A DNA stretch of 63,891 bases, counting the filler, from Chrysochromulina tobinii (taxonomy: Eukaryota): assembly GCA_001275005.1 (NCBI GenBank). It is 8 parts of 8 records of this genome, joined end to end, with 100 filler letters (N's around TTAATTAATTAA, not from the genome) between each part and the next. Parts side by side here need not be neighbours in the genome. Positions count along the whole stretch, not along the records: positions 50,345 to 62,663 come from JWZX01000788.1; 7 more parts are not named here. One strand, given 5' to 3'. The stretch's first letter is position 1, and each line of letters begins with the position of its first letter. The notes beneath the pieces are model-generated. The model saw nothing but the letters and a program-made list of their open reading frames with translations, made no database searches and was not told the DNA's origin. Shown here one piece after another: positions 1,700 through 62,763 of the stretch. The position numbers were made by a program, and so were the translations under genes.

Positions 1700-3329
1700 T
1701 CACCCCCCTTTCTCCCTGGGCGTGGTGCTGGCCCACACCTTCCCATACGGTGTGAGCTGCTGCACTTGCTCGGCGGTGAGGTAGCGCCCGTCGACGAGGG
1801 CCTTCGCCGGGTCACTCGCCACTAGATGTACCTTACCCATGGACTGACGGTCAATCAGTTTCGTCAGTACGTGATCGACGACCCAAGCTCCAATCGCGGG
1901 CGCTCCCATCACAAGGCACGCGCCGAGCAGCTGCGGATAGTGCGCCTTGCTCACTCTGGCCACCTCCGTCCAAAACGGGATCGCGCTGAAAAAGCGTAAC
2001 GGCTCAAACTCGCGCACTTCGTAAACCGCCAAGTGGCCGCGCGACGGGCAAGCTGAGCTGTCGACCTCCTGAACCACGACCTCCATCCATCGCAGGTAGC
2101 GCCTCACGATGTCGCGCTGCGAGACGCCTGTGGGGAAGGATGGGCGCCGTGGTGAGCACTTGCATGCAGGGCAGGATCCATCTTAGGTTCGATGTCGCGC
2201 TGCGACACGCCCTTGGCCAGCAGCTTGGGCACATCCAGCGCGCGAAGGTCGTAGAAGATCACCGGGCGGCCCTCGAGGTCGTGACAAAGGACTTGCATCG
2301 CATGTGGACCCATCGCGTGCTCCAGCGCCGCCTCGGCCGTTGGATCTGCCAGCTTGAGCGCGCCCGGGCGGAGGAGCTCATGGATCCCCTCTTCTTCGCG
2401 CCAGCGCGACGATGCCGCAAAGGCTACCGCGGCCTTGGCCACGTCGCCCTGGTGCTCTTTCAGATAGCGCGCGCCGCTGTGGGCGGAGGGCGGCTGGGCG
2501 CCGAGCTGGGCGCATGCCCCGCAGAGCTTTTCGAGGCTCTGCTCCTCTGGGGTCCTCGGGCTATCCTCGGGCGCCGTGTCCGGCGTCGTCACGAACCAGC
2601 TCGCATTCCTCCAGAGCCCGCCCGACTCCCCGCTGACCCCCTTGAAGCGCAAAGCATTGCGCGCGGCGGGCGCGAGCTCGTTCTCAACGTACCACCGGAT
2701 GCTGGGCCGCGCGAGCCCGATCCCGCCCGCGTCGACCTCCGTGTACACGCCGCCCTCCACCCTGTAGAGCACCCAGTTGCACAGGACGAGGCTCGCCACA
2801 TACTCGCGCGCCTTGCCCTCGTCCGTGTGCGTCGACGGCTCGAAGTTGTGGATGCCGTTCTCGGTGACGACGACGTAGCTCTCGGGCACAGGTGGGCTCA
2901 GGATTCGGAAGAGCTGGTCGAGCACGCCACGAAGCAGCGCCAGCTGGGTACGGCCCTCTGTCGCCTCCTTTGTGGCGAGCTCGTCTCAACACTACCTACC
3001 CGGATGCTCGGGCCGTCGCCGAGCCCGATCCCGCCCGCGTCGATCTCCGTGTACACGCCGCCCTCCACCCTGTAGAGCACCCAGTTGCAGCGGAGCCTGG
3101 CCACAAAGCCGCGCGCCTCGCCCTCGTCCGAGAGCTCCGACAGACCGGTCCCACGAGCGACATGCTCATGGGTCACAAAATTGTGGATGCCTTTCTCGGT
3201 GATGATGACGTAGCGCTGGTGCGGGCCGCCTCCGCCAAAGAGGCTCTTGAATAGATCCGGCACTAGCGAGACCGCTGGAACCGTGAAAGAGGCGTTCGGG
3301 ATGGATGGCATCTGGTCGAGAACCGTCAT
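1700..3329 (-). CDS. CRAL-TRIO/Sec14-like lipid-binding protein with two tandem N-terminal domains; one intron (2128-2210) and an apparent frameshift at ~2985-3000
   Basis: ARYLKEHQGDVAKA..WREEEGI (CRAL-TRIO N), DLEGRPVIFY, HYPQLLG..MGAP (C-terminal); duplicated domain CNWVLYRVEGGVYTE[IV]DAGGIGL; splicing the GC-AG intron joins ORFs 2104-2925 and 1700-2107 in frame. Confidence 0.75.
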
Positions 3330-5220: not shown

Positions 5221-8200
5221 ATGCTGCTGCGCGCGACCAGCACCCGCTCGGAGGATGTAACCCGGCCGCCGCTGGCGCAGCGCTATCGATCTTCACCTCT
5301 CGCCTCGCCAGAGATGCCCACGGGCATCACCAACATCATCTCCAACGAGGCTGCCGAGCGCTTCTCCTTTTACGGCATGAAGTGCATCCTCGTCGTGTTC
5401 ATGACCTCGCATCTTCGCGACGCGCAGAGGCAGCCGGCCTATCTGAGCGAGAAGGTCGCACTCGTCTACTACCACTCATTCACCAGTGCCGTGTACCTGA
5501 CCCCGCTCGGCGGAGCGCTGCTAGCCGAGGCGGTGCTCGGCAAGTACCGCACGGTCGTGTACCTGTCGCTCGTGTACTGCGGAGGGCACCTCGCTCTCGC
5601 AATCGACGAGACGCGCACCGGTGATGGCCGCTGGGCGCACACGTAGTTGATTGCGTCCGATGGCCACGGATGGCCGCTGATTGCGTCGCGATTGGCGCTG
5701 AGAGCCGCTGATTGCGTCTGATTGCCGCTGAGGGCGCCCTCGCTCGAGCAGGCCTCTTCGTCGGCCTCGCCCTCGTCGCCCTCGGCTCCGGCGGCATCAA
5801 GCCGTGCGTCAGCGCCGTGTTGGGCGACCAGTTCGGCGAACTCAACCAGCACTTGGTGAGCGTCGCCTTGATTGCACTTGATTGTGTACTGGTTTGCTCT
5901 GGATTACAGTGGATTGGTGAGCTCGGCCTTGGTTGAACATGGTTGCTCTCGATTGCACTTGATTGCCTCAGGTGAGCACGGCCTTTGGGTACTTCTATCT
6001 GGCCATCAATCTGGGCGCCTTCACCTCGACGTTACTCACACCCTACCTTCTCGAGCACGCGGGCTCGCATGCGGCCTTTGGCGTGCCAGGTGGTTGCACT
6101 TGATTGCACTCGTTTGCACTTGAGTGTACTTGACGTGGTAGTGCTCACCACGGCGCCCTCGCCCACACACAGGCATCGCCATGGCTCTCGCAACGCTCGC
6201 CTTCTGGAGCGGCCGTCACAAGTACAGACCTCTGATGACCTCTGATGACCTCTGATGGCATGCTGATTGCCATACCGCCGCCGTAGGTACACGCACGTGC
6301 CCCCGAATGCGAGCCGCTTCCTGATGACCTCTGATGACCTCCCTCATCAGGTACACGCACGTGCCCCCGAATGCGAGCCGCTTCCTGCGCAGCACTTGTA
6401 GCCCCGAGGGTGCCCGCGCGCTGTGCAAGCTGATCGGCTTGTTTGGCTTCTTCGCGGTGTATTGGAGCTTGTATGACCAAAGTGGCTCGGCGTGGGTGCT
6501 GCAGGTGAGCGTCTCGGATGGCCCCTGATGGCCTCTGATGGCCTCCCTCATCGCATGCATGTGAGCGGCTCGGAGTGCTTCTGATGGCCTCTGATGGCCT
6601 CTGATGGCCTCTGATGGCCTCCGATGGCCTCTGATGGCTTCTGATGGCCTCTGATGGCCTCTGATGATCACTGATGGCCTCTACTGGCAGGCAGAGAAGT
6701 TGGACAGAAGGTTCCTGGGTGTGGAATGGCTCCCCTCCCAAATCGGGGCGATCAATCCTCTCTTGATCCTCACACTCGTACCGCTCCTGCACGGCGCCGA
6801 CTTTGGCACCCCTCTCGGCGCCGTGTCGGGCGTGGGGCGCTCGGCGTTCTTCGCACGGCTCGGGCTCGTACCACGACGGCGCGTGCGGCTGGTAGGGCTC
6901 TACGAGCTCGTCGCCCGACACGGCGTTCGCGTTACGCCGCTGCGTAAGATCGGCTGCGGGCTCGTGCTCTGCGCGTGCTCGTTCCTGATCCCGCTGCAGG
7001 TGGAGGTTTGGATGGAGGCGAGCGGGTACAATCATAGCGCTGCAGCTCTGGCCGAGTGCAACGGCGCTGTTGGCGACGGCGGCGGCGGCGGTGCGCGTGG
7101 CTGTGGGCTCAGGCCCAGCATCGCATGGCAGGTGGTTGCCTTTGATCACGTGCCCACTGATTGCCCTTGATGAATACTGCTCAGTGAGGCCGAGCATCGC
7201 GCGGCAGCTCCTCGCTGATCTCGTGCCCCCTGATTGCCCTTGATGAATACTGCTCAGTGAGGCCGAGCATCGCGCGGCAGCTCCTCGCTGATCTCGTGCT
7301 CACGCTCGTTGATCTCGTCTCGATCTCGTCTGATCTCGTCTCGATCTCGTCTCGGTTTCGTCTGATCTCGTCTCGATCTCGTCTTGGTTTCGTCTGATCT
7401 CGTCTCGATCTCGTCTCGGTTTCGTCAGCTCGTCGCCTATTTCGTGCTCACTCTTTCGGAGGTGCTCGTCTCCGTCACTGGCCTCGAGTTCAGCTACACG
7501 CAGGCGCCACCGGCCATGAAGAGCATGGTGATGGCATTCTACCTCAGCGCGGTCGCCGCAGGCAATCTGGTCACCGTGGCCATCAATGCGAGCATCCTCA
7601 ACGCTGACGGCTCGAGCAGGTGAGTGCCGCTGCTTGCCGCTGATGGACTACGATGGCTTCTGATTGCTTCTGATAGCATCTCGAGTTCATCCCTGACTGC
7701 ATCTCTGATTGCCTCTGATGTGGCAGTTGGAGTGAGGTCGAGTACTATCGGTTCTTCACACTGATTGCTTCTGATTGCTTCTGATTGCTTCTGATTGCCT
7801 CCGATGTGGCAGTTGGAGTGAGGTCGAGTACTATCGGTTCTTTACACTGATTGCTTCTGATTGCCTCTGATGTGGCAGTTGGAGTGAGGTCGAGTACTAT
7901 CGGTTCTTTACACTGATTGCTTCTGATTGCTTCTGATTGCTTCTGATTGCCTCTGATGTGGCAGTTGGAGTGAGGTCGAGTACTATCGGTTCTTTACACT
8001 GATTGCTTCTGATTTACTTCTGATTGCTTCTGATTGCCTCTGATGTGGCAGTTGGAGTGAGGTCGAGTACTATCGGTTCTTTACACTGATTTCTTCTGAT
8101 TGCTTCTGATTGCCTCTGATGTGGCAGTTGGAGTGAGGTCGAGTACTATCGGTTCTTCACACTGATTGCTTCTGATTGCTTATGATTGCTTCTGATTGCT

Positions 8201-8560
8201 TCTGATTGCCTCTGATGTGGCAGTTGGAGTGAGGTCGAGTACTATCGGTTCTTCACGCTGCTCATGTTCGTCACCGCCGCCGCCTTCGTGCCGTACGCCG
8301 CGTGCTACAAGGAGAAGAGATACTTTCAAGGCCATGGGATGGACGAGATAGAGACGAGATCGGACGAGATGGAGACGAGAACAGACGAGATAGAGACGAG
8401 ATTTCAAGGCCATGGGACGGACGCGGACGCGGACGGTCCCGAGGCGGGGGCGGGGCCGCAGCCGACGTGGCGATCGTCGCAGCCGCTGCTGCCCGATGAG
8501 GTCAAGCTCGCGACGACTCGACCACGAGACGCTATAGTCGCTCGACACGAGACGCTTTAG
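5221..8560 (+). CDS. POT/PTR family proton-dependent oligopeptide transporter (multi-exon; start may be 5083)
   Basis: [12 protein letters not shown] (ExxERF), [41 protein letters not shown] motifs; introns ~5621-5751, 5856-5971, 6090-6172, 6222-6350, 6505-6690, 7132-7428, 7620-8223. Confidence 0.92.
7715..8260 (+). repeat. Seven copies of acceptor + exon start (GATGTGGCAG|TTGGAGTGAGGTCGAGTACTATCGGTTCTTYAC) separated by variable numbers of CTGATTGCTT decamers
   Basis: Direct reading; only the last copy (exon from 8224) continues into the ORF. Confidence 0.95.
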
Positions 8561-11291: not shown

Positions 11292-13880
11292 ATGCGGACG
11301 CATATGCTTCTAGCTCTGCTCACATTGCGTGCCGCCTCGGGCTTCTACCTGCCTGGCGTGGCGCCTCGCGAGTACCTGGATGGAGAGAAGGTCGAGGTTA
11401 AGGTCAACAAGCTCACATCTACCGTCACGCAGGTGCGCTCTGCCCACGGCCAGCGCCTTCGCCATGGCCGGCGCTCTGGCCTGCTATCGACGCGTACGCC
11501 TGCACCCGCCCTGAACAGCTGCCGTACGACTACTATAAGCTTGCCTTTTGCAAGCCCAAGGAGCTCATCAACGCGGTCGAGAACCTCGGCGAGGTCCTTC
11601 ACGGCTCGGTGATCCAGAACTCGCCGTATCAGCTCTTTGCGCAGAAGCAAGACTTCAAGGTGCTCTGCAAACAGGATCTGGACGCGAAGCAGGTGGCCGA
11701 GTTTGGGAAGCGGATTGGCGAGGAGTACCGCGTGCAGCTCATCATGGACAACCTGCCCGCGGCCACGCGCATGATCTCCGAGCTGCCCAATGGAAAGACG
11801 GTCTACATGTACGACCGTGGCTACAGGTTGGGCTTCATGGGAGCCAAGGAGTTTCCTGGCACGATCCCAAAGACGCCGTACCTGAACAACCACCTGCGCT
11901 TCATCATCAAGTACCACAAGGACGCCAAGTTCGAAGGCGCGCGCCTCGTCGGCTTCGAGGTCGAGGCCTTCTCCGTGAAGCACACCTACAAAGGCAAGTG
12001 GGGCGTGGACGCGAGCCTCACCTCGGTGCCTCTGTCGCCGGACCTGCCACCCCAGCCGATCGTGGAGGCGGGCGAGTACATCTTCACGTACGACGTGCAG
12101 TGGGAGGAGTCACCTATCCGGTGCGACTCGCGATGATCGCGCCTAGACCTCCCCACATGGGTGATTGCCTCTCTCATTCTCTCATTGCATGCTGATTGCG
12201 TGGGGTAGGAGTCACTCGTCCGGTGCGCCTGATTGCCTCTTCTCATTGCATGCTGATTGCGTCGGATTGCGCTGCATGCAGGTGGGCTTCGCGCTGGGAC
12301 CTCTACCTCTACATGGGTGACGACCAGATCCACTGGTTTTCGATCCTCAACTCGCTCGCCATCGTGCTGCTGCTCACGGGTACGCGCTTCGGCTCGGATG
12401 GCCTCTGATGGCCTCAGATAGGTTCTGAGTGGCTCTGAGTGGCTCTGAGTGGCTCTGAGTGGCTCTGAGTGGCTCTGAGTGGCTCTGAGTGGCTCTGAGT
12501 GCGTTTCCATTTTCCGCCCTCATCAGGCATCGTGGCGATGATCATGATGCGCACGCTGCGGCGCGACCTCAACCGTTACAACTCGGTCGAGGAGAAGGAG
12601 GAGTTGGCAGACGAGAGTGGCTGGAAGCTCGTACATGGCGATGTGCTGCGCCCGCCGCCGCTGCCCCTGCTTCTCTCGTCGTCGGTGGGGACTGGCATGC
12701 AATTGCTCTTTATGGCCATCATCTCGATCTTCTGCGCGATGCTCGGTTTCCTCTCTCCCGCCAACCGCGGCGGCCTTCTCACTGCGACGCTGCTGCTCTT
12801 CGTGTTGATGGGCGTGCCTGCGGGCTACTACGGCTCGCTCCTCTACAAGTCCATCAAGGGCTCGCAGTGGAAGTCGTTGACCGCTTCGACCGCCCTCCTG
12901 TACCCAGGCGTCATCTTCCTCCTCTTCTTCTGCCTCAACCTCTTCATATGGGGCTGCGGCTCGTCTGCCGCTGTGCCCTTCACCACCATGCTTGCCCTGA
13001 TCTGCATGTGGTTCTGCATCTCCGTCCCCCTCGTCTTTCTCGGCGCGTTCTTCGGCTTCCAGACGACCCTGCCCGAGCCGCCGGTGCGCACACGATCGAG
13101 ATCGCACGCCAAGGACTGCCGCATGCAAGTGCTCACCACGGCGCCATCTCTTCCCCACAGGTGCGCACGAACGAGATCGCACGCCATGTACCGCTGCAGG
13201 CGTGGTACATGGGGTTGCCGTGCACGATGGCGGTGGGCGGCATCTTGCCGTTCGGCGCCGTGTTCATTGAGCTCTTCTTCATCATGAGCTCTGTCTGGCT
13301 GCAGCGCTTCTACTACGTCTTCGGCTTCCTCGCGCTTGTGATCTTCATCCTGCTGCTCACGTGCGCCGAGATCTCGATAGTCCTCTGCTACTTCCAGCTC
13401 TGCAACGAGGATTATCACTGGTGGTGGCGCTCCTTCCTAAACTCGGGCGCGGCAGGCGGCTACTTGCTTGGCTACTCCGCCATCTACTTCCATACACAGC
13501 TTGACATGGTCGGTTTCACACCGACGCTCCTCTACTTTGGGTGTGAACGCCCCCCGTGTGCTGTGGAAGATTGCCTTTGGGTCTCCCCCGCGTGCCTCTC
13601 TGATAGCCCCGATCACCTCCCTCCTCAGGCACACGTTGATTGCCACTGATTACCACTGATTGCCACTGATTGCCACTGAGTGCCACTGATTGCACCCCTC
13701 CTCAGGCACATGTTGATTGCCACTGATTCCACTGATTGCCACTGATTGCCACGGATTGCACCCCTCCTCAGGTACATGTTGATCGCCGCCATCATCTTCG
13801 CGCTGATGACGGGTACAGTTGGTTTCATGGCCGCGTGGTGGTTCGTGTGGAAGATCTTCTCGGCCGTTAAGGTCGACTAG
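11292..13880 (+). CDS. TM9SF: Transmembrane 9 superfamily (EMP70/nonaspanin) protein
   Basis: Signal peptide then [61 protein letters not shown]-terminal KVD; introns 11433-11518, 12122-12282, 12380-12526, 13084-13160, 13541-13771. Confidence 0.95.
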
Positions 13881-45232: not shown

Positions 45233-45308
45233 AGGCGGCCGTGGTCAGTCAGAGCTGAGGCGCTGCTGGGAGCGGCAGAACCGGGGTAGGCAGCGGCGAT
45301 GGCCGCCG

Positions 45309-45321
45309 CAGCAGCAGCAGC

Positions 45322-45408
<87 letters not shown>
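45309..45408 (+). repeat. (CAG)n microsatellite, ~33 units with one CGG interruption
   Basis: Direct reading. Confidence 0.97.
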
Positions 45409-45411
<3 letters not shown>

Positions 45412-46695: not shown

Positions 46696-49158
46696 TCACT
46701 TCTGGCTACTCTCTAAACTGTTACTATCCGGATACATGGCCCCCTTCATGAGCGAAAGCCCGTCAATAACGCCAAAGTCGGCATCGGTGGCCGCGCGCAC
46801 GCTCGCGAGATCGACGCCAGATGCAATCTCGCGCAGCGTGAGGCCGGAGCCGTCGGGTGCGACGTCGAAGACGCCGAGTTCGGTGATGAGCATCGACACG
46901 CAGCGTGCGCCGGTGAGGGGCAACGTGCAGTGGCGGAGCACCTTCGAACGCCCTCTCTTGTCGCAGTGCTCCATCGTGACGATCACCTTGGCGGGAGAGG
47001 AGACGAGATCCATCGCGCCGCCCATGCCTTTGACGAGCTTGCCAGGGATAAGGTAGTTGGCCATGTCGCCGTTAGCAGCGACCTGCGCCCGAGCCGAGGG
47101 TGGTCGCAATCAGAGGCGCAATCTGAGGCGCAATCAGAGTCGCAATCAGAGGCGCAATCAGAGGCGCAATCAGACCTGCGCCCGAGCCGAGGGTGGTGAC
47201 GTCGCAGGAGCAATCAGTCTCAATCAGAGGCGCAATCAGAGGCGCAATCAGAGGCGCAATCAGACCTGCATCGAGCCGAGGATGGTCACGTCGCAGTGGC
47301 AATCAGTCGCAATCAGAGGCGCAATCAGCGGCGCAATCAGACCTGCATCGAGCCGAGGATGGTCACGTCGCAGGAGCAATCAGTCGCAATCAGAGGCGCA
47401 ATCAGAGGCGCAATCATGGGCTATCAGAGTCCATCAAGCCTGAGCCCGAGCTGAGGTTGGGCCTCATCAGGCGCAATCAGTCGCAATCAGAGGCGCAATC
47501 AGAGGCGCAATCAGACCTGCATCGAGCCGAGGATGGTCACGTCGCAGTGGCCGCCGCGGATCATTCCAAAAGAGGCATCCGCGCTGAAGTACGAAGCGCC
47601 GGGCAGTGCAGTCACCTGAGTAGGGACGTACTCCGATACACTCAGCCGCAATCAGCCGCAATCAGCCGCAATCAGTCGCACTCAGCCACCATCAGATGCA
47701 ATCAGCCGCCATCAGAGGCACTCAGCTCACCGTCTGCTTGCCCGCGTTGATCAGATCGGCATCCTCTTGCCCCCTTGTGGGGAAAGGGCCGACGCCGAGC
47801 ATCCCGTTCTCGCTCTGCAACGTGATCGAGACGCCTTCGGGAATGAAGTTGCTCACCTGATGAGGGAAGCCATCATAGGTCATCAGAGGTCATCGGAGGT
47901 CATCGGAGGTCATCAGAGGTCATCAGAGGTCATCAGAGGTCATCAGAGGTCATCAGAGGTCATCAGAGGTCATCAGGCGCTCACGAGGGTCGGCAGCCCG
48001 ATGCCCAGGTTGACGTAATCTCCGTCAGCGAGCTCGAGCGCCGCGCGCCGAGCAATCCGCTCTCGGTCCGGCGTCATGGCGTCCCCTTCGGTCCGTTCAC
48101 CGGCGAGGGTGAGGCGCTCGATACAACGCTCGGACGGTCCCTGCACAATCCGCTCGACGAAGAGGCGCCATCAGCGGGCGCAATCAGATGGCGTAATCAG
48201 CCGGCGCAATCAGCCGGCGCCATCAGCGGCGCCATCAGCGGGCGCCATCAGAGGGCGCAATCAGTGAGGTGCAATCAGAGGGCGCCATCACCTGCACGAT
48301 CCGGTCGACGAAGATCCCCGGCGTGTGGATGTCGTTTGGGTCGAGCGTCCCCGCGGGCACGAGCTCCTCCACCTGCCTCGAGGAGGCAATTAGTGGCAAT
48401 CAGAGGCAATTAGTGGCAATCAGAGGCAATTAGAGGCAATCAGGAGCGGGCACGAGCTCCTCCACCTCCGCGATGGTGATCTTGCCCGCCGTCGCCACCG
48501 CCGGGTTGTGATTACGCGAGGTCATGCGATAGATAAGGTTGCCCTCGGTGTCGCCCTTCCACGCGCGCACGAGGGCAAAGTCGCCAGGCAGCGCCCGCTC
48601 CATGATGTACTCCTTACCCTCGAAGAGCTGCGACGCGCGTGGCGTCGAGCCCTTGATGACCTTGCCCGAGCCATCGGATGCGTATCGAACTGGCATGTTG
48701 CCGTGATGAACGAGGGTTCCGACACCGGTGGCGGTGAAGAAGGCCGGGATGCCCGCGCCGGCCGCGCGCATCCGCTCGGCCAGCGTGCCCATCGGCACCA
48801 GCTCGACATCGATCTCGCCGCTCAGGAATTGCTTCTCGAAGAGAGCGTTCTCGCCCACGTACGAGCCGATCATCTTGGAGATCTGCTTGCCCTGGAAGAG
48901 CAGGCCGAGGCCACGCTCGCTCGTGCCCACATTGGAGCTCACCACCGTCAGGTCGCCCACACCCTTCTTTTGCAGCGCAGCGATCAGGTTCTCAGGCACG
49001 CCCGTAAGGCCGAAGCCGCCGACGAGCAGCGTCGCGCCCGACGGCACGTCGGCGACGGCATCGGCGGCCGACGCGAAGACCTTGCCGCCGACCGGCACCG
49101 TCGACGAGCGATGCCGTCGCGCTGCGGCCAACGTCGTCATCAAGGCGCGACGCACCAT
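46696..49158 (-). CDS. OXCT1: Succinyl-CoA:3-oxoacid CoA transferase (fused A+B), mitochondrial-type presequence, 5 introns
   Basis: [52 protein letters not shown] (catalytic Glu), [10 protein letters not shown]. Confidence 0.95.
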
Positions 49159-50084: not shown

Positions 50085-50443
50085 CTGCGCCGTGGTCAGC
50101 GCCGTGGTCAGCGCCGTGGTGAGCATCGGGGTTGTCAGGGGAGGTCCAGTGGACGGCGGGGGGGCGCCCGGCGTACTCGGCGCCAAGGACATGTTTCCAC
50201 CACTCTGTTGTGCCCTGACGCTCGCAAAGTGGGAGGGGGGAGGGNNNNNNNNNNNNNNNNNNNNNNNNNNNNNNNNNNNNNNNNNNNNTTAATTAATTAA
50301 NNNNNNNNNNNNNNNNNNNNNNNNNNNNNNNNNNNNNNNNNNNNGCAGGGACCGGGTTGTCGCGCTCACCAGGCTGCTTGTGTAGCTCTGATGAACAGCA
50401 ATTCAAGTCAAACACGCGACCAAGTTTACGCACGCGGAGTCGA

Positions 50444-53400
50444 ATGGTGAAGCCCCCCTTGTCGATGAAGACAAAGCTCGACGTGGCCTCCAAGGCTCCC
50501 AAGCTCTTCATCCCGGGGAAAGCTTTCCCCGTGCCTTCAACAGCAGCGCCCGTGCCCGTGCCAACACCGGCATCAGCACCTTCCCGATCCGCTGGAGGGG
50601 CCGCCGTCACCGCACTCGGGCTCGCCGCCAACGCGGAGAAGGCGGCAGCGGAGAAGGCGGTAGTCATGGATGTGGCACCTGGCCGTGGATGGGACTACAT
50701 CCAAGGTAAGGGTGCAGCTGTGCTTCGACACCTCGAGACAGGTCATGCTGTTGGTCTTTCGGATGGCTCAAATGGCTATGTACATCTTAAGCAGGGTGAT
50801 ACAGCGCCTGAACTGGTCGAGTTTCCCCTCGGCACTCAACCACAGGATTGGAGTGCCGAAGAGCGCAGATTGCTTGGCATTCTCATGACTTCGCCAGGCG
50901 CTCATCCGCTGAGCACATCGTTGGGCTGCACCACCACGTTTGGTCGTTGGAAGTTCACTATCGAGGACAGTGGCCTTGTCATGCTACATAATTCGTCTCA
51001 AGGTGAGTCACCGGAGAGAACGCGCTGTCTCGCAGAGCATGGATACGAACGACCACGGAGCGCTCACCACCTAACGGAAATTGTGGCCAAACATGCAGCT
51101 TTGCAGGGGAAGACCGCCGGCACCAACGCGCCGGCGCTCGCGCTCGCGATCGCGACTCCGAGCCTCTTCGGAGGCGCACCGGCGCCAGCTGCCGGCCTTT
51201 TCAGAAGCACACCGGCCGCCGGCCTTTTCAGAAGCACACCGGCGCCAGCTGCCGGCCTTTTCAGAAGCACAACGGCGCCAGCTGCCGGGTTTTTCGTAGC
51301 CCCGGCGCCAGCTGCCGGCCTTTTCGGAGGCGCACCGGCGCCGGCTGTCAACCCCTTCAACGCGCCAGCCGCCGGCCTTTTCGGCGGCGCACCGGCGCCA
51401 GCCGCCGGCCTTTTCGGAGGCGCACCGGCGCCAGCCGCCGGCCCTTTCGGAGGCGCGCAGGCGCCAGCTGCCGGCCTTTTCGTAGCCCCGGCGCCAGCCG
51501 CCGGCCTTTTCGGAGGCGCACCGGCGCCAGCTGCCGGCCTTTTCGGAGGCGCACCAGCGCCAGCCGCCGGCCTTTTCGGCGGCGCACCGGCGCCAGCTGC
51601 CGGCCTTTTCAGAAGTACAACGGCGCCAGCTGCCGGGGTTTTCGTAGCCCCGGCGCCAGCTGCCGGCCTTTTCGGAGGCGCACCGGCGCCGGCTGTCAAC
51701 CCCTTCAACGCGCCAGCCGCCGGCCTCTTCGGAGGCGCACCGGCGCCAGCTGCCGGCCTTTTCGGAGGCGCACCGGCGCCAGCTGTCAACCCCTTCAACG
51801 CGCCAGCCGCCGGCCTTTTCGGCGGCGCACCGGCGCCAGCCGCCGGCCATTTCGGAGGCGCACCGGCGCCAGCCGCCGGCCCTTTCGGAGGCGCACAGGC
51901 GCCAGCTGCCGGGTTTTTCGTAGCCCCGGCGCCAGCCGCCGGCCTTTTCGGAGGCGCACCGGCGCCAGCTGCCGGCCTTTTCGGAGGCGCACCAGCGCCA
52001 GCTGCCGGCCTTTTCGGCGGCGCACCGGCGCCAGCTGCCGGCCTTTTCAGGAGCACACCGGTGCCAGCTGCCGGGTTTTTCGTAGCCCCGGCGCCAGCTG
52101 CCGGCCTTTTCGGAGGCGCACCGGCGCCAGCTGTCAACCCCTTCAATGCGCCAGCCGCCAGCCTCTTCGGAGGCGCACCGGCGCCAGCCGCCGGCCTTTT
52201 CGGAGGCGCACCGGCGCCAGCTGCCGGCCTCTTCGGAGGCGCACCGGCGCCAGCTGCCGGCCTTTTCGGAGGCGCACCGGCGCCAGGTGCCGGTTTTTTC
52301 GTAGCCCCGGCGCCAGCTGCCGGCCTTTTCGGAGGCGCACCAGCGCCAGCTGCCGGCCTTTTCGGAGGCGCACCGGCGCCAGCCGCCGGCCTTTTTGGAG
52401 GCGCACCGGCGCCAGCTGTCAACCCCTTCAACGCGCCAGCTGCCGGCCTCTTCGGAGGCGCACCGGAGCCAGCTGTCAACCCCTTCAACGCGCCAGGATC
52501 TCCGCCGACCTTCACCTTTGGAAGTGCCTCGATAACATTTGGCGCGCCCGCGCCCGCGCCCGCTGTCGGCTTCGGCGACTTTGGCGGTGGTGCCGCTGGC
52601 TTCGGCGATGGTGCCGCCGGCTTTGGCGGTGGTGCCGCCGGCGTTAGCGGGACGGCCGCGGCCGGCACGGGCGACCCACCGTATAAGCCGGTGCAGGAGA
52701 GGGAGCAAGTCGCGGGCGCGCCCGGCCAAGTGCAGGTATACCAGTACTGCTCGATCACCAAGATGCCTCAGTACGGAGCCAAATCGTTGGAGGAGCTCCG
52801 GTTCGAGGACTACGCCAAGGGTAATACGGGTGCAGTCGTACTTCGGGTGGAGGGCGCGGGTGCTTACGACCATGTCCAAGGTGAGTACAAGGTGGACGTC
52901 GCCGCTGGCCCTTGCGCTGCTGAGTGTGCAGATAAGGCGACTCGTGTTTGCGTCGAGTTTGATGGCGGGAAAGGAAGGAACAACTACATCGCTTCGACTG
53001 AGCTCAATCTGACAAGGCTCGCCGGCGGGTACCGGATGGGCGACCGCGTGACGACTCGCGTCGTTTGTGGTAAAGTCGCGGTTGGGGAGGCAGGCACGGT
53101 GATTGGCCCTTGCAGCTCTCAGGTGGACGATAAGGCGACTCGTGTTTGCGTCGAGTTTGATGGCGGGAAAGGACGGTTGAACTACATCGCTTCGACTGAA
53201 CTCCGTCTGACAAGGCTCGCCGGCGGGTACCGGAGGGGCGACCGCGTGACAGCTGGCTTGAACATGTACCCAGTCGCGGTTGGGGACGCAGGCACGGTGA
53301 TTGGCCCTTGCACTGCTGAGTGTGCAGATCAGGCGAATCGTGTCTGCGTCGAGTTTGATGGTGGAAAGGGACGGATCAACTGCCCTGCTTCGATTCTGAT

Positions 53401-56400
53401 GGAGCCGTTGCCACCTCGATTAAGCCAAGCCTTGACAGACAATCATGTGATGTTGAATCAGCTCGACCTGGGCGTGATCGATTGGATGGTAGCCTCGTAC
53501 AAGAAATGCGAATCCGATCAGGAGCGTGATTTTGTGCTCAAGATTATTCTGCAGACCCTCGTCCATGGGTGGCCCCAGTCTTCCAAGCAGGCGGACTGTG
53601 GACGTTACAAGTACTGGAACAGACTGGCACTCGTGCCGAGGAGTCGGCAAGCATTGCAAGCAGCGCTACGGGAGTACTCCGTTAACTACAAACGAGAGTT
53701 ACAAACGAGAGTCTCCGATTACACAGAATTCCTTCATAGTGCGGATAACCAATTCTACCAACAGGTGGAAGCGTGGGCACGGGAGGATGCCATCCTACGC
53801 GAGGCCAAGGAGAAGCAACGGCAGGCGCTCGAGGAGAAGAAGCAGGCCGAAATCAAGGAGCGGGAGGAACGCAGGAAGGCGGTTGAAGCGAGGCAGGCGA
53901 AAGGGAATGTTTCGTCAAGGCTCGAGGACGCTAACCCGGGGAAGAAGAAACCCTGGAGTGTGGATGAATTGGGTTCGGAGCTCTTCCGCCTTGCATTCGA
54001 GGGCGGAGATACGCGACAGCTCGAGCCCCTTCTCAACAAGGTCAGCAACCTGAGCCTCAAGAAGCGGACCAAGGTGCGCGAGTGGGTCGACGATTCGGGT
54101 GCGACGCCGCTGTATGCGGCCGCGTACAACGGCAACGTCGACGCACTCAAGCTGCTCCTACGTGCGCAGTTTGCGCCCGACATGTTCCACACCAAAGATG
54201 GCGTGACGCCCCTCTACGCGGCGTGTGACCGTGGTCATCTGGCGACGGTGAAGGAGCTCGTCAAGGGGCGTGCGGACCCGATGCTCAGCATGCGGGACAC
54301 CGCCTTCACCCCCTTGACCATTGCCGAGACCATCGCCGAGACCAAGGGGACGAAGAGTGTGCACCAGTCGATCGTGGAGCTGCTGCGTGCACACGTGAAC
54401 TCGCCGCAGGTGCTTACGGCAGCGCCGACCAAAAGCTCCGCTGTGCCGACCATGAAGACCCTCACGAAGCTTTTCGAGGACGAGGGTGAGGAGGGGGTCA
54501 AGAACAAGAAGCAACTCGAGGAACTGAAGTTGCAACTCGAGCAAGTCGGGAAGAACAAGAAGCAACTCGAGCAACTCGGGAAGAACAAGTTTGAGAAACA
54601 AAGGGCTTGGGGAGGAGGAGGAGTGATCGAGGAGGAGGGGGAGGAGGGGGAGGAGGGGGAGGAAGCGGAGGGCAGGAAGGAGGGGGAGAACAGGGAGGAC
54701 AGGGAGGACAGAGAGGAGGGGGAGGGCAGGGAGGAGGGTGGTTTCTTCACAAGCGTCGAAACACGTTCGAATGGAAAGGAGGGGGAGGAGCAGCAGCCAG
54801 AGGAGAGCCACTTTCATGTGGAGCAGCAGAGCATCGGGGAGGCAGAGCGTGAGGTGGAGCGAGTCGCTCATCGTCCGGCCTTGAGCTCGGGATTGAGCTC
54901 GGGATTGAGCTCAGCCACGCTCGACAGTGCGACCGTGCGTCCGGCCGAGTCCTTCGACTCCCTCATCACGGCCCTTCACTCTAGTGCCTCAAGCTCTGAT
55001 GTGTTGCGTGCTGCTCTGAAGCAGCTCGACTGTGTCGACGAGGACAGCCTCGATGACGCTCGCAAGAGGCGCTGGCGTGAGGCTCTGAGTTGGGGCCAAG
55101 AGCACCTCGACCACCTGACGATGAAGGAGGCCACCTCGCTCTACGCCCTGGAATGCGAGCTGCCTGTCGACCTTGGACCGAAAAGCTGCTTCTCGGCCCA
55201 CACCATTCTCGTGGTGGACAATAGCGCCTCGATGCGGCAGGTCGATGTGCACACGGGCACCGCTGAGGGCGACATCTCACGGACAGAGGCGGCTAAGCGG
55301 CTACTCACGACACACTTCCTCAAGACGCAGATCGATGCGGGCGCGCAGGCGCACGAGCGCGTGTCGCTGATCAAGATCCAGAGGGGTTCGACGAGGCCCC
55401 CGTTTGCCCTCTTCCCGCTCGATCATAGCCTCGCTGACCGCATCCTGCGCGCCATCGACGAGCCTCGAGGGCATGGCGACTACCTGCCCGCACTCGAGCT
55501 GCTCGCCAAGCTGGTGGAGCTCACAGCCCCTTTCATGAAGGAGAGCGCCAAGACGTCAATCCTCTTCTTCTCCGACGGCAAGCCCTCCGATCACATCGAT
55601 GAGCGCGTGCTGCCCGCGCACCTACGGCAGGCGCTGTCGGAGCTGCACAAGGCAGTGCAGCGGAGCGGCAGTTACATCGAGCAGTTCTCGCTCCTTGGCT
55701 TTGGCGAGGCCGATGAGGCGATGCTGCGCATGATGGCAGAGGCGTACCCCGCGCGCGTGGCTGAGTACCGCGCCGTGAGCGGGCCAGAGGGGTACAAGGC
55801 GCTTGAGACGGCCGTGACCACCTTTGCCTCGTCTGTGGCGGTCTCTCGCCTCTCGTCGGTCTCAGTGACCTTGGACAAGAAGCAGCGTGCGTTGCGTCGC
55901 GTCGACCGCTCCCTGGGCGAGCGCTTCTACCGTTACGAGGACTGCAAGGTGCTGCTCCCGCCAGAGAGGCTAATTCACCTCCATGATTGCCTCTGATATA
56001 CCCGAACGACTCTGATAGCCTCTGATGACCTCTGGTGGCCTATTGATCGCATCCCTCATCAGGTGCTGCTCCCGCCAGAGAGGCTCGGGGACTTTAACTC
56101 GGATCTGCTCAGGCTGCCTGAAGGGCACACCCTTCTGATCTCGTCCAAGCTACTTGGCCACGGCGGCGAGCGCAACGCGTTCGTAGCCTTCTTCCTGTCC
56201 AAGAACAGCTTCACCACTGAAGATGAGGAGTGGGTGGTCAAGGAGAGTCGACACGAGCGCGCGGAGCACGAAGATGACGACTTTCATCGCAAGGCGCTCG
56301 TCACGCAGCATGCGGCGCACATGCTCGCGAAGCGCTTCAACGACGATGCCGAGGCTCTCGAGATAGACGGCCTTCCGAGCGTCTCGTACATGAACCACTG

Positions 56401-59400
56401 CTTCATCAAGACGGGGCGCGTAACGCGCCGTGCCGGCGAGAAGGCAGATCCAGATGAGATCCCGCGTCGTTCGCTCTTTGCGGAGCGCAAGATTGAAGGT
56501 ACCTTCCGCAAGTGGAACACGAATTTCGGCGCCGTGGTCAAGACGATCGAACTCGATGATGAGGGCGGCGACGCCGCCGCGGGCGATGGGCGTGTGCGCC
56601 TCTCGTCCGATTGTGTGCCGCAAGCGTTCTCGCATTGGACGATTGACTTCTCCGGCCGGCCAGAATCCACCTTCAAGGGGCCCGACGGGACGGCGGGCCG
56701 GTGCCTCGTGTGCGACTTGCAGGGATGCTTCGACAAGGACGGCTCGCTCAACGGCTCGCCCAACACCTTCCTCTTCTCGGATCCGGTGATCCATTCCGAT
56801 CTTGGCACGCCGCACCTGTTTGGCGCCACGGACTTGGGTAGAAATGGGATCGCCGCGTTCCTGCGCTCGCACAAGTGCAACGACGTGTGCCGGCTGCTCC
56901 ACCTGCCGGAGAACAAGGACTTTGTCGAAGAGAACGTGGGACAGCTCGAGAACTCAAGTGTGAACACGTCCTTCATCTCGGTGGCCCAGACGAAACATCT
57001 GGCCTTGCGCGCCGCCGAGCGCAAGATTAACCATCGCGAGATGCAGGCCGCCAAGAAGCACGGCGAGAAGTACCGTGGGCTCAACGGCAACTTCCAGCAC
57101 GAGCTCGAGGACATCAGGCTCGTGACGAGCTCGGACCAGAAGGTGGGGGTCACGGTCATCAAGCAAGGGGCGCCGCGCCTGGACGCTCCCGGCGACGCTC
57201 CCGACGCCCGTCGCGCCCAGTACGACGCTCCCGACGCCCGACGCGCCCAGTACGACGCCCGCAGCGGCGTCGGGAGCGGTAGCAGCGGCGCTGGGGGCGG
57301 TAGCTCTCAAAAGAAGCCGGTCATCTTGTCGCTGCCCCGCGCCCCGCGACCAGCGCCGCCAATCATCACTCTTGCGCCACCCAAACCACGGACGCCACCG
57401 ACACTGCCCACGCCGGAGCTACTGGCTCCCTCCGGTGTCGTTGAACCGGTACCCGTTCCAGGGCATGCTCTCACACCCAGTGCGCCTCATGGTGAACGCG
57501 GAGGCGGGCGCGGAGGGCGTGGCGGCCGAGGCGGAGGCCGCGGTTTGGTGCACGCGGTCGCTGCTGCAGCTGCTCTGATGGCTGCAACGCCAGGTGGATC
57601 ACCAGCGGAGGTGGCTGCAGTACATCCACGTCCAGGAGCTGCATCGGAGATGACTGCAGTACATGCCCTGCCCCTGCCAGCTGCTCTGGAGGCAGGCCGA
57701 GGCGGCCGAGGGGGCCGAGGCGGCCGAGGCGGCCGAGGCCTGCATCTTGCGTCCGCCACGTCTTCGGCACTCATGATGAGCCTCACAGGGCCTGAGGGCA
57801 CCAAGTTTCTCGAGTCGATGGCGGCCGGCGTGTCGTCGTCTGCGCTGACGCACCTTGCACGCAGCCTGCCTCCGCAGGCCCTCCCATTCCCCGCTCAGCT
57901 GCTGCCTGCACGTGGCGCCGAGAGCACCGGACCACCCAACGTGGCCCTCGCCGCTGGTGTGTCGCCAACTGCCCTACCTGCCATGGAAGCTTTGCAGAGC
58001 CTTCCGAGCTTCCCCACAGCCGCCAGCTGCTCTCCTCCTGCTGAGGAAGTTGGGCGGCCCGATCCCTCTCGTCCGCCTCCCTCAAAAGCCTTGGCACCCT
58101 ACTCAAGAGAGCCGGCTGCTGAGCCTGTGCCTAAGCTCGGGGCTGCTGAGCCTGCTGCTGAGCCTGCTGCTGAGCCGCCCGGGATTGGGGCGAAGCTGGC
58201 GGCCAAAGGCGCCGAGTTGGAGTTGCCGGTCGCTGATCAACTCGCTCTACGAGCCCAAGCGGCCAAGATCGCCACTGCCCTGGCTGTCGCTAAGGAGCCC
58301 CGTACGATCGACGCCGCGCCTGAGCCCATATCAGCGCCTGCGAGCGTGTCTGCGGGTGCAGAGGCCTCCGCCGCCAGAGCCGAAGTGGAGGTGAAGGTCG
58401 GCGCGGAGGTCACCCCGGAGGTCATCTCGGAGGAGGCGATGGCGATTCGTAAGGACTGGCTCTTAAGGCAAGATCAGGCAAAGCGCGGCAACCTTCCCAA
58501 GATCAGCTTTGTGGAGTGGTATCGCCGGCTAACGCTCTTAGATCAGCGCCTTCTCACTCCACACCTCACCGAGGTGGAGAAAGAAGAGATCCGGGCGAAC
58601 TCGACAGGGTTCATGGAGGTCGTCACTCGATCGTCCGCGGCGCTCAAGGAGAAGGGTGAGGGGGCGAAGCCGACTGGCGACGTAGCCCTACGTTCGCAGC
58701 AGGAGGTGCCCAAAACAGCGCTTGCGCCCGGACGCCTAGCGAACCAATTTGGCGCGCTGGCAGCTGTGAGCCCCGAGGACACTCCCCTGACCGACAAGGA
58801 GATGCGCAAACAGGAGAAAAAGGAGCGCCGAGCCGAAGAACGGCGTCTGCAGGAACATGAGCGGCAATTCCATCCCTCATCTGTTCCCCCACAGGAGCGT
58901 CTCCAGGAGCACGGGCGGGCTGGAGCCGAGGCGCGAGAGGCGCCCCGAGAGGCACCCCCACGGAAAGTTGGAGCGCCAAAGGTTGCCGATGCAGAGAACG
59001 GCTTGCTCGAGGCACGGCTTGCGTCGAAGCACTCGACCGCGACGGTGGGCTCGGGAGCTCACAGTAAGCCGCACGTGCACAAGAAGATGACGTCCAAGGA
59101 GATCGATGCCTACACGACTCCCAAAGCGCTCCGTCGCGCGTTGCTGGATCGCGGCATCGCACAAGCCGTGGTGGAACAGTTCGAGGATAAGCCCGATGAG
59201 CTGAAGCGCCTGAGAGCGCATGCTAAGACGCTCCCCGGCGTGTGCTCCGAGGCGCGCTCGCGAGGACGCATTCACGTGGAAGGTGTCCACGTGGACCAAG
59301 TGGAAGCTCAGGAAATCGAGCGCATCTCTGAATTTATCAATAACCCTTCGCAATCCGCCAAGGGGGCAGCCTATGCAGACACGATCCAAAATGTGGTGAA

Positions 59401-59629
59401 CGATGTGGCACAGAAGGCCAGTGACGTGTTCAGCTACGTGAAGGATGCTGTTCTAGGCAGCACGAGTGCGTCGGCGCCGCCGGCGGTGGCGGACAAGGAC
59501 GATGAGGATGAACATGGCCACGGTGCAGCTACGGCACAGGTCAACGAGAGCAGCGAGGAAGGCAAGGAGCGCGAAAGAAAAGAGCAACTGAAAAAACTCC
59601 GCGCGCGCGCACGTGCGGCGCGTGCATGA
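50444..59629 (+). CDS. ~3000-aa multidomain alpha-kinase: GLFG repeats, GLEBS, SH3-like repeats, ankyrin, acidic tract, vWA, alpha-kinase, RGG/low-complexity tail; intron 55949-56062
   Basis: Splicing AAG|GT..CCCTCATCAG|GT joins ORFs 50357-55996 and 56063-59629 in frame; GGERNAF, WVVKE, FRKWNTNFG, QAFSHWT, CDLQG, DPVIH, DLGRNGI, HKCNDVC; VVDNSASM..FFSDGKP; GATPLYAAA. Confidence 0.88.
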
Positions 59630-60156
59630 GAGTGAGAAACCTTATACTTCCGATGGGGCCCAGGAGTACTAGCATGAGAACTACGAGTAGGCTGGCGCTG
59701 TGTGCGGCGCGCAGCGCATGCGCTGTGTGTACTGGTTTCGTACAAACCTCGAATTCCGCTGTGTGTACAGTACAAAAGGCAGTAGATGTGTGCGACTGTA
59801 CTTACGAAGTTTGGTACGAACGAAGTCGAAGATCGAAGTCGGCTCCTCGTCGGCGGCTAAACTTACGGGACCGGCGAGGCTGTATACGCCTTGTTGGGAG
59901 TTGAGCGTAGTTGGACGACGTTTGGGACTTCATAAGAAAGTCACCTTCAGATAATGGCAAAATTGCTTTGTGTCTCCACGGGACCTGTGGTCGTGCGACT
60001 TGCCGATATGGCAGTTTAACAAGCAAGCAAGCGTGCTTGCTTGCTTGCAGTTTAACGTCACAACGTCCGCGCCGAGATAATGCAAAAATGGGGAGGCGTA
60101 ACGGCTAATTAATTCTCGAATTCGTCGTGTCGTTCGTCTCGACCCCCGGGGGCACG

Positions 60157-60954
60157 ATGGTGGCCTTCACGATTCGCATTGTCGGCTTATTTGCGGTCGC
60201 GAGCGTTGCATGCGCGTTCACTGCAGGTCCCTTGGCTCCCGCCCTACGGCGATCGGCAGTAGTTGCTGGTGGTAGCTCTGACTATCTTCCACATTGGCGG
60301 TCTCAGGCCTCTGTTGCAATGCCTCGAGCAGCTGTGGTGAAGGCGGTCGCCCCTCGGCCAGGGCCGGCCGAGACAGGGGCGAGCGTGATGTCATTTATTA
60401 CTGCGTTGGGCACGCGCAACGCCGTCACTGCAACCGCTGCGTTTGTCCTGGCGGTTATAGGCGCATCCATTCTCCGCAAACGTGGAGAAGTCCGCCGTCT
60501 CAAGCGAGCAGAGGAGAAGAAGGGGGAGAAGACGGTGGAGAAGAAGGCGCCGCCTCCGAAAAAGGTGGAGAAGAAAGTGGAGAGCAAAGCTGGGAAAGGG
60601 GCGGAGACAAAGTCCGAGACGGACGCAAGCACGATTTTGGACTTCGGAGCAGCCATCTTCGGCGCTGCAGTCGATGCGACGGTCTGGGCGGGGACGGCGA
60701 TCGCAGAGGAGGGTGTCAAGGTGCTTGCTGTGCCGACGGTGGCAGCAGAGGCTGCCGCCATGCCGAAAGAGCAGGAGGAGAAGGAGGCAGCGCCCGAGAA
60801 GGTGCCCGCGAAGGTGTCCGCGAAGGTGTCCGCGATGGACGACACGCGTGCCTTCATTCCGACACCGAAATTCGCGGGCCCGAAGAAGAATTTCGTCTTC
60901 AAGGCGGGCCCAGAGGGCGTTGGCTATTACAATCGAGATTACACATGGGAATGA
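60157..60954 (+). CDS. Probable plastid-targeted membrane protein
   Basis: Signal peptide ending VACAF (ASAF-like) + Ala/Arg/Ser transit-like region; TM helix; C-terminal FxGxKxNFVFKxGPEGVGYY motif. Confidence 0.65.
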   Translation: MVAFTIRIVGLFAVASVACAFTAGPLAPALRRSAVVAGGSSDYLPHWRSQASVAMPRAAVVKAVAPRPGPAETGASVMSFITALGTRNAVTATAAFVLAVIGASILRKRGEVRRLKRAEEKKGEKTVEKKAPPPKKVEKKVESKAGKGAETKSETDASTILDFGAAIFGAAVDATVWAGTAIAEEGVKVLAVPTVAAEAAAMPKEQEEKEAAPEKVPAKVSAKVSAMDDTRAFIPTPKFAGPKKNFVFKAGPEGVGYYNRDYTWE

Positions 60955-61371
60955 TGCTAGAATCGGAGGGTATCAGTGCAGCAGCGTGCAGCAGTCAGTG
61001 ACAATCAGCGCCAACAATCGTGTGCGAGCCGCATGACGCCAGCATGTATATTCTGAATCTGAGGTGTCTGTTGGATGCGTCACTGGTCGTTTGAGGTCGG
61101 GGGCGGTCGGGGGCGGCGTGGTGCGTTGCGGTGCATTGCGAAGAATGTTGATTCCACCGCAAACCGCGCGCTCGAGAGGACTGGTGCCTCGACGGTCCCG
61201 AGAGCACATTTCAGGCGTTTGGTTCGCGAAGTTTGTTGTTAATATTCATGCGTGCACCGTGCCCAGAGGCCATCCCAGAGGCAGCGCGTTCAAAGGTTCG
61301 CATGCGGTATGTTTCCCTGGGCATGGCGAAGGCCAATACAACAATGTGATGCATTCTTGAGGTAACCTAAC

Positions 61372-62403
61372 TTACGCGAGACGGATCTGCGGCGGCGAGG
61401 GCGGCGGCGGCGGCGGCGGCGTCAGCGGCGGCGTCAGCGGCGGTGTCATAGCGGGCATCGCCTCTGCCTCCGCCTGCTGTAGCCACGACACCGCGTGCCG
61501 ACGAGCACTCGGCGATGGCGTCTCCTGCCGCCTTGGCGGCGGCGAGGTCAATGCGGGCTCCATCGCTCCCTGCACTGCGAGCGCGGCGCACAGGGCCTCA
61601 CGCATGTGTGGCACGCCGGATTGCTTTGCGAACTCATTCACCAGCCACTGCATTCCCACCCCCCTCGCCCTCCCCGCGGGCTTCGACGAGTGCGCGTTGG
61701 GCACGACGAGACTCTCGGGCATCTCCGGCTCGAGATTCTTGAACACGCTCACGAGATCCGCCTCAACCTTCGTGAGCCTCGAGCCCGCGACCTTTGCGAG
61801 GGACACCTGCGGGCGGCCCCAAAAGCGCTCCTGCGCCTTCGAGACGGGTATGTAATGCTGGGGGCTGCGCTCCGTCTTCTTGGGAAAGCGCGAATACTCG
61901 GACGAGGGCGAGCCAGGCCTCGACACCCCGCTTGGGGACGCCTGTGTGCTGCCCCAAAAGCGCTCCTGCGCCTTCGAGTCAGGTACGAAATGCTGCGGGC
62001 TGCGCTCGTGCTTCTTGGGGAAGCGCGAATACTCGGACGAGGGCGAGCCCGCGGGCCTCGGCACCCCGCTTGAGGCTTTGACGCGGCTGGGCGGCGGGTG
62101 CACGCTCGTCGTCTCGTTCCTTCGTGGCGGTGATGCGTCGTAGGTATGTTTGATGGTAGGCAATGGCGTCTTGACCTTAGCCTCACCCTCGCCGGCCTTT
62201 GCCAAGCTTCGCCGATCGGATCGCCCGCGCGCCACCGCCTGCAAGCGCGCCGCAGCGTAGTAGTCCTGCTCGACGTCCCGAAACTCATTCAGGTCCACGT
62301 CTTCGTCGGCATACTCGGCGTGCGCGTCGGCCGTGAATGCGCGCGGCGGCGTCCACATTTCTGACGCGGGGCGTTTGAACAAGAATTCGAAAACGTTTTG
62401 CAT
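61372..62403 (-). CDS. Hypothetical protein with IQ motif and a duplicated ~40-aa unit
   Basis: AAARLQAVARGRSDRR; two copies of GSPSSEYSRFPKKxERSPQH..SKAQERFWG. Confidence 0.6.
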   Translation of the reverse strand: MQNVFEFLFKRPASEMWTPPRAFTADAHAEYADEDVDLNEFRDVEQDYYAAARLQAVARGRSDRRSLAKAGEGEAKVKTPLPTIKHTYDASPPRRNETTSVHPPPSRVKASSGVPRPAGSPSSEYSRFPKKHERSPQHFVPDSKAQERFWGSTQASPSGVSRPGSPSSEYSRFPKKTERSPQHYIPVSKAQERFWGRPQVSLAKVAGSRLTKVEADLVSVFKNLEPEMPESLVVPNAHSSKPAGRARGVGMQWLVNEFAKQSGVPHMREALCAALAVQGAMEPALTSPPPRRQETPSPSARRHAVSWLQQAEAEAMPAMTPPLTPPLTPPPPPPPSPPQIRLA

Positions 62404-62763
62404 GCGAGTTCACACTCGAAAGTGTCTTTGTTCTCACAAAAGTTTCTTCGGCAATGGCCTCTCTTCGCAACGGCCAACGCTGAACGGACGCGAAAGGCGA
62501 AACTGAAACCGAGGGGGGCCTCAGCCGCACGGACAGTCAGTCAGTCAGTCAGTTTCGTCGTCCGCGGAGGTTCCGCACTCAGTTTGTAATCAGGGTATGA
62601 GGAAGGGGTGCAAATCCAGATATTAATCCCTCCCCTACCCCCTTGGGTAAATCACTCAGTTTGNNNNNNNNNNNNNNNNNNNNNNNNNNNNNNNNNNNNN
62701 NNNNNNNTTAATTAATTAANNNNNNNNNNNNNNNNNNNNNNNNNNNNNNNNNNNNNNNNNNNN

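Follow-up and report, generated by a model that had tools for sequence, protein, structure and literature searches.

We found that intron gain with a long duplication of adjacent exon sequence is recurrent in Chrysochromulina, and that an intron lying between the VWA and alpha-kinase domains of a VWA/alpha-kinase gene is a clear example of it. The window analyzed here, 63,891 nt of Chrysochromulina tobinii sequence (assembly GCA_001275005.1), consists of eukaryotic contigs joined by N spacers, with the focal intron on the piece at 50345-62663 (JWZX01000788.1). The first-pass annotation had pointed to a 114-nt intron whose first 23 nt exactly copy the start of the next exon. The sequence agrees, and the exact direct repeat reaches 25 nt once the AG before each copy is counted (55947-55971 = 56061-56085, spacing 114), a match with a chance expectation of ~1e-7 over the window. 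Coordinates of the intron, its host gene and related introns are collected in Table 1.

A spliced intron that begins with a copy of the next exon

The focal intron is real and spliced. Contigs assembled from RNA runs X13 and X16 jump from 55946 to 56061 (GT..AG when the cut is shifted by +2), a skip of exactly 114 nt that bears out the 55948/56063 junction proposed as a check, and contigs of a third run (X12) end at 55971 and resume at 56061, that is, at the two repeat copies. For each of the three RNA runs, the binned depths are consistent with an insert free of RNA-contig cover. This evidence covers 54800-60000 and consists of assembled RNA contigs, rather than raw reads. A DNA run that is possibly the source sample (X9) contained one 3,538-nt contig spanning the intron; runs X18-X21, in which almost no query words occurred, were left out. 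As expected of a major spliceosomal intron, its ends are GT..AG and it is spliced out of the mRNA.

With the intron removed, open frames of 1,899 and 1,210 codons become continuous and, counted from the ATG at 50444, run for 3,023 codons, giving a gene of ~3,020 codons. Exon 1 lies within an open frame at 50297-55996, and the spliced frame is open from 50444. Because splicing takes out both the exon copy and the filler behind it, the protein is unchanged. The intron had been described as the only evident one in the gene, and it is indeed the only RNA joint in 54800-60000, whereas upstream of 54800 the description draws on the open frame. Nup98-like FG repeats and a GLEBS motif (50444-52800, + strand) share the predicted open frame with ankyrin, VWA and, after splicing, alpha-kinase domains, and the length of the FG array varies among loci L001-L005.

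The duplicated segment includes AGGT, and the adjacent exon end is directly repeated at the intron's opposite end. As the first-pass annotation proposed, the duplicated exon start supplies the GT donor and the insert supplies the acceptor; branch-like CTRAT repeats also sit in the insert. Filler that is not exon sequence makes up 89 of the 114 nt, and the intron is therefore not made of duplicated gene sequence alone. Individual filler units carry 0-4 mismatches in 10 to pristine units, with 14 of 70 bases in total differing from the nearest pristine unit, a decay that may be overstated by the small unit library. The label "pristine" given to this intron suits the exon copy, which is exact, but not the filler, whose repeat units are decayed; this difference suggests that the filler was already old on arrival. 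The best relative of the filler in the window was intron 47984-47857 (67/88), and no donor template was found within the window beyond this match. Near-identical filler copies were absent from the window and from loci L007 and L008. We found no inverted pair at the two filler ends and no special fold of the intron (folding z 0.64).

Most annotated introns of the window are built of 10-13-nt units with CTRAT-like motifs. Introns of Emiliania also contain repeats of 10-11 nt. The shared tail was also recurrent, with CCTCATCAG occurring 10 times in the window against 0.75 expected: at six of the 26 annotated acceptors, at the ends of three inner repeated or inserted units, and once antisense. The twin and mirror introns of Table 1 have different tails. 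Two further features were set aside, a terminal hairpin (CATCAG pairing with CTGATG), which reached 7 bp in only 4 of 26 introns and had no control, and an 8-nt inverted match at the focal junction, which was absent from other events and is likely due to chance.

Table 1. Coordinates of the focal intron, its host gene and related introns in the window
Feature	Position	Strand	Description
Exon 1	50444..55948	+	FG repeats, GLEBS motif, ankyrin repeats, VWA domain (Pfam); putative start ATG
Exon 2	56063..59629	+	Alpha-kinase (Pfam PF02816, E 1e-30), then low-complexity tail to stop; most under RNA contigs
Spliced intron	55949..56062	+	114 nt, GT-AG, phase 0, in VWA/alpha-kinase linker; RNA contigs, homolog alignment
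Direct repeat, copy 1	55947..55971	+	Exonic AG and intron nt 1-23; source of GT donor
Direct repeat, copy 2	56061..56085	+	Acceptor AG and exon 2 nt 1-23
Filler	55972..56060	+	89 nt; decayed 10-nt units of TGATGACCTC/TGATTGCCTC type, then tail before AG
In-frame TGA	55994..55996	+	Intron retention would end protein before kinase
Candidate branch-site motif TTGAT	56043..56047	+	Predicted from sequence only; alternative CTGAT at 56022-56026
Family acceptor tail CCCTCATCAG	56053..56062	+	Sequence
Twin intron	48373..48465	-	93-nt intron 1 of 3-oxoacid CoA-transferase; 2+20-nt exact next-exon copy
Mirror-type intron	48141..48291	-	Ends with 23-nt, 2-mismatch copy of preceding exon end; predicted
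TM9SF intron	13084..13160	+	Starts with decayed 28-nt copy of next exon; other filler family; predicted
GC-AG candidate intron	2128..2210	-	Starts with 21-nt, 1-mismatch next-exon copy; upstream frame unconfirmed
Peptide-transporter intron	6222..6350	+	Inner 37-nt next-exon copy, then new tail ending CCCTCATCAG; predicted

Exon copies in other introns and empty sites in relatives

Twenty-six introns in nine genes were annotated by hand from splice signals and reading frame, the focal intron being the one with RNA support. Long terminal exon copies were observed in 6 of the 26, compared with 0 of 650 mismatched pairs, and inner exon copies in 7 of the 26, compared with 0 of 104 controls; 12 of the 26 had a terminal or an inner copy. 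The copies were variable in length (~20-43 nt) and were found at both intron ends. The next exon began with GT in 15 of the 26 introns (4.4% background), and donors were varied, with 13 different first five bases among the 26. Pattern scans of viral contigs gave 0 and 2 matches and of prokaryote genomes 2, all four of which look like chance in unrelated sequence.

Several introns showed variations on this structure. A second family of fillers, characterized by GTGCTCACCACGGCGCC or a motif close to it, was observed at 2128-2210 (-), 6090-6172 (+), 13084-13160 (+), 18973-19151 (+) and near 13990 (+); two of its members start with 21-28-nt next-exon copies, one of them with a GC donor. The AP-4 epsilon intron at 19870-19982 (+) contains a repeat-plus-CCCTCATCAG unit between two ~24-nt copies of intronic sequence, and as these copies are purely intronic, insertion needs neither an exon nor a GT. 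Two swollen introns contain repeats together with six copies of the next exon's start (7620-8223, +) or several copies of the previous exon's end (47083-47516, -). A 69-nt GT..AG segment at 27505-27437 (-), almost all of it copies of following sequence, could be an intron made by tandem duplication alone, but it does not interrupt the open frame, and as an unverified segment it was left out of the intron counts. A 308-nt spacing between two paralogous genes is not an intron and was likewise left out. Elsewhere in the window, an intron-less frame (34729-38292, -; ~1,190 codons) encoding OTU-like protease and MLLE domains lies on a contig of different style and is possibly part of a mobile element, and a (GCA)34 microsatellite (45308-45409) lies directly upstream of a long minus-strand frame.

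The intron most like the focal one is the twin in the CoA-transferase gene, for which an empty site was observed in a close relative. The hand-spliced protein is identical at 511 of 512 residues to one labelled Chrysochromulina parva, which places the organism in the C. parva/C. tobinii group of haptophytes. Three records with a different N-terminus (P0074, P0204 and P0205; 96-97% identical) read through site 1 and then enter intron 2 with near-same residues; since they run on into intron 2, they look genomic, sharing intron 2 and lacking intron 1. Both intron sites were read through in P0076, P0208 and P0209 (80-81% identical for the two aligned) and site 1 in P0079, P0081, P0085 and P0095 (67-74%). 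Among window-type records, two enter the intron in frame, four have a frameshifted copy and three end inside the copy. P0075 (81%, on a 944-nt contig) leaves the alignment two codons past the twin site, which may be a parallel gain or the contig end. A sister lineage with 97% protein identity has the next intron but not the twin, which argues that the exon copy is the footprint of a gain at a site that had been empty. The C. parva protein P0203 agrees with the site of intron 2 (48141..48291, -) except for a 4-residue repeat near 48141-48160, as would result from use of an AG within the exon-end copy, either through an annotation slip or as a real alternative acceptor.

The focal intron looks fixed within the species. 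It was present at all six near-identical loci in the DNA scan, with an empty allele at none, and in 18 of 18 same-species protein records reaching the junction among those listed (15 of 28 and 4 of 4 cluster members, one of which had no match). The protein searches spanned 653-2079 aa and 497-2000 aa, a range that leaves out an intron-less allele of ~3,000 aa, and the DNA scan had no such limit. Two records (P0294 and P0295) differ within the intronic exon copy, which, judging from these sequences, appears to be starting to decay; at locus L003 a C at the first base after the copy extends the repeat to 26 nt.

Outside the species the site was mostly empty. All seven close homologs spanning the junction (51-61% identical) align across it with no gap, and genomic loci L007 and L008 are without the intron. 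Read-through of the site was seen in 10 of the 13 distant homolog clusters placed in the tree; P0275 breaks at the site, and P0274 and P0276 break ~4 codons upstream (P0280 is short of the junction and was left out of this count). That read-through reflects genomic sequence is shown by loci L007 and L008 and, for the proteins, is judged from their running into other introns. The nearest homolog cluster, P0010 (~60% identical, support 90/97), reads through, and P0275 (~50% identical) falls in another clade (87/99), with neither branch starred; given these positions, a parallel gain at AG|GT is the shorter story. Alignment of orthologs had been suggested as the check on recent gain, and its outcome was divided: 10 of the 13 distant clusters are empty at the site, but one distant homolog (P0275) breaks at the same position. 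We conclude that the focal intron is probably lineage-specific. Locus L008 has kinase introns at two other positions (6181-6285 and ~6505-6715), one of them made of 13-nt repeats, and by sequence comparison intron positions in the kinase family look lineage-specific.

Whether the gain is also young, as first claimed, was upheld in part. Most homologs are without the intron and a twin of the same type is absent from a 97% sister, but the youth of the focal intron itself did not follow, as it is present at 6/6 loci and the nearest empty homolog is only ~60% identical. No sister-lineage ortholog of the host gene was found, and the age of the intron is therefore bounded only by the perfect copy, for which the chance of survival is 0.12 at 10% divergence and 0.04 at 15%.

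Possible routes of gain

The reading that we favor, with confidence evenly divided for and against, is that a single event of repair or fork-restart copying created the focal intron at an AG|GT site that had been empty, with filler from the 3' half of an older intron. The new strand would run 23 nt past the AG, duplicating the exon start, and would then take as its template a repeat-rich intron at another place in the genome, from which 89 nt would be copied up to the donor intron's acceptor before the strand re-annealed at the AG of the original site. The 10-13-nt CTRAT repeats could offer the switching strand places to land and at the same time supply branch sites, and donors as varied as these would allow an exonic GT to serve. 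We infer template switching at microhomology because junctions lie in repeat register with excess microhomology: 9 of 15 long copies had the junction in register, with a mean microhomology of 3.0 nt compared with 1.0 nt for the null (p ~1e-4), where the 6 of 15 failing the register test include the focal intron and its twin, and inner copies account for a large part of the microhomology signal. These inner copies may be local tandem duplications. A perfect copy beside decayed filler also fits copying from an older intron.

The main alternative, which we consider rather unlikely though it deserves serious weight, is RNA-templated insertion, in which non-LTR machinery, starting from a nick at the AG, would reverse-transcribe the RNA of an excised intron or a SINE-like RNA with CATCAG at its end. 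It stands as the main rival because CATC-AG closes new tails within introns as well: CCTCATCAG, at least 10-fold enriched, ends inserted units within introns at 6342, 19949, 4024 and 4097, where an acceptor is unneeded. Duplications of variable length and loss of the 5' part are characteristic of target-primed reverse transcription, and insertion of this kind predicts a long variable duplication together with an insert fixed at its 3' end and truncated at its 5' end; the observed repeat opens with the AG that also closes the filler. However, a fixed RNA 3' end is a misfit to the mirror events (48291-48141 and 47516-47083), in which the 3' end of the intron is a copy of the upstream exon's end. 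The different tail of the twin and the lack of a poly(A) tail also count against it, and no reverse transcriptase was observed among the 11 frames scanned, the window being a small sample.

We judge it improbable that an existing intron was instead given a new beginning, through tandem duplication of its 3' part together with 23 exon bases and then exact loss of the first unit. Such an intermediate state is common, in that inner copies lie in 7 of the 26 introns, the filler is decayed, and P0275 breaks at the same site. Two events are required, however, the 97% sister lineage has no intron at the twin site, and the clade mates of P0275 read through or break elsewhere, so that a shared ancestral intron would need several losses.

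Insertion of a short DNA transposon, either a MITE-type introner or a Replitron-like HUH element, with duplication of its target seems very doubtful. A donor from the duplication with an acceptor in the element is the known introner layout, and the duplications of Replitron-1 are variable with an RG target, according to the available account. Introner duplications, however, are described as fixed at 3-8 nt per family, and those observed here are ~20-43 nt and variable. With copy lengths varying, no terminal inverted repeats, no special fold and no close sibling of the decayed filler, a duplication made by a transposase is unlikely, and we did not retain the earlier interpretation of a 23-25 bp target-site duplication in that sense. 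The terminal direct repeats of Replitrons were also absent, and the accessible part of a published screen gives 0 introner families for C. tobinii. Lastly, an artefact is scarcely credible, whether an assembly duplication or reverse-transcriptase slippage imitating splicing: 25-nt repeats can promote template switching during cDNA synthesis and the RNA evidence consists of contigs, but the intron is present at 6/6 loci, two of them 98-99% haplotypes, and has GT-AG ends, an in-frame stop, an exact frame match to homologs and an insert without RNA-contig cover.

Relation to known systems of intron gain

To our knowledge, the origin of new spliceosomal introns is largely unsolved outside introner-bearing species. 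In a haptophyte group listed with 0 introner families, readable long duplication footprints were found in about one-quarter of the introns examined. We suggest, tentatively and as something that could well prove wrong, that Chrysochromulina is now gaining introns without a dedicated transposon, with any intron, as DNA or as excised RNA, serving as template and a repeat built of branch-site motifs and spread across the genome making 20-40-nt repair duplications at AG|GT functional as introns. If so, introns would beget introns through a self-feeding repeat that is invisible to similarity-based introner screens. The exon-copy route is likely missed by standard transposon screens.

In the open literature and the supplements searched, we found no description of a long exon-copy footprint in Chrysochromulina. 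In the available text of the C. tobin genome paper, introns come up a single time (PMC4580454). C. tobinii appears in the genome list of a 2022 introner screen, in the part of its supplement that was accessible (PMC9860276 supplement), and is given 0 introner families in the corresponding part of a 2025 screen (PMC12130899 supplement). From the portion available, microhomology-mediated repair has been invoked for intron shortening in fungi (PMC8469720).

The focal intron resembles introners in that its donor comes from the duplicated target, its acceptor is brought in and the protein is unaltered. As far as the accessible texts describe them, introners of Symbiodinium and Polarella recruit the 5' splice site from the target duplication (10.1101/2020.10.14.339549; 10.1101/2022.06.06.494994), and so does the fam24 introner of Emiliania huxleyi, with a target duplication of 2 nt (PMC12130899 supplement). 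Introner duplications are given there as fixed, at 3-8 nt (10.1101/2022.06.06.494994; 10.1101/2020.10.14.339549; PMC11282704), and terminal inverted repeats as absent from many families (10.1101/2022.06.06.494994). Introners differ from the focal intron in that their duplications are short and fixed (3-8 nt, or 2 nt in fam24), inverted repeats are often present and copies can be aligned, and the introner of marine Chrysochromulina, in the text available, differs in its 4-bp duplication and in a 5' site carried by the element. Replitron-1 of Chlamydomonas reinhardtii makes variable-length duplications including an RG dinucleotide, and one Replitron-like locus is reported in C. tobinii in the accessible text (PMC10288648). 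Replitrons are described there as elements of 0.9-3.6 kb that carry terminal direct repeats of 6 bp and whose fixed left end follows the RG; none of these features was observed at the focal intron.

Intron gain through tandem genomic duplication across AGGT has also been described, in the text accessible to us (PMC3443670). The likeness is that AGGT in the duplicated segment gives the donor and the coding sequence is kept; the difference is that 89 of the 114 nt of the focal intron are foreign filler rather than exon copy. New introns of Daphnia pulex, attributed to double-strand-break repair, have repeats of 4-12 bp in the 33 cases covered by the available text (PMC4202315). As there, the terminal bases of the adjacent exon are repeated at the opposite end of a new intron and young introns contain inner repeats. 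The Daphnia repeats of 4-12 bp with AT-rich fillers differ, however, from the 25 nt observed here (~20-43 nt in the window) and from a filler of branch-site-like repeats that occur across the genome, with a shared acceptor tail.
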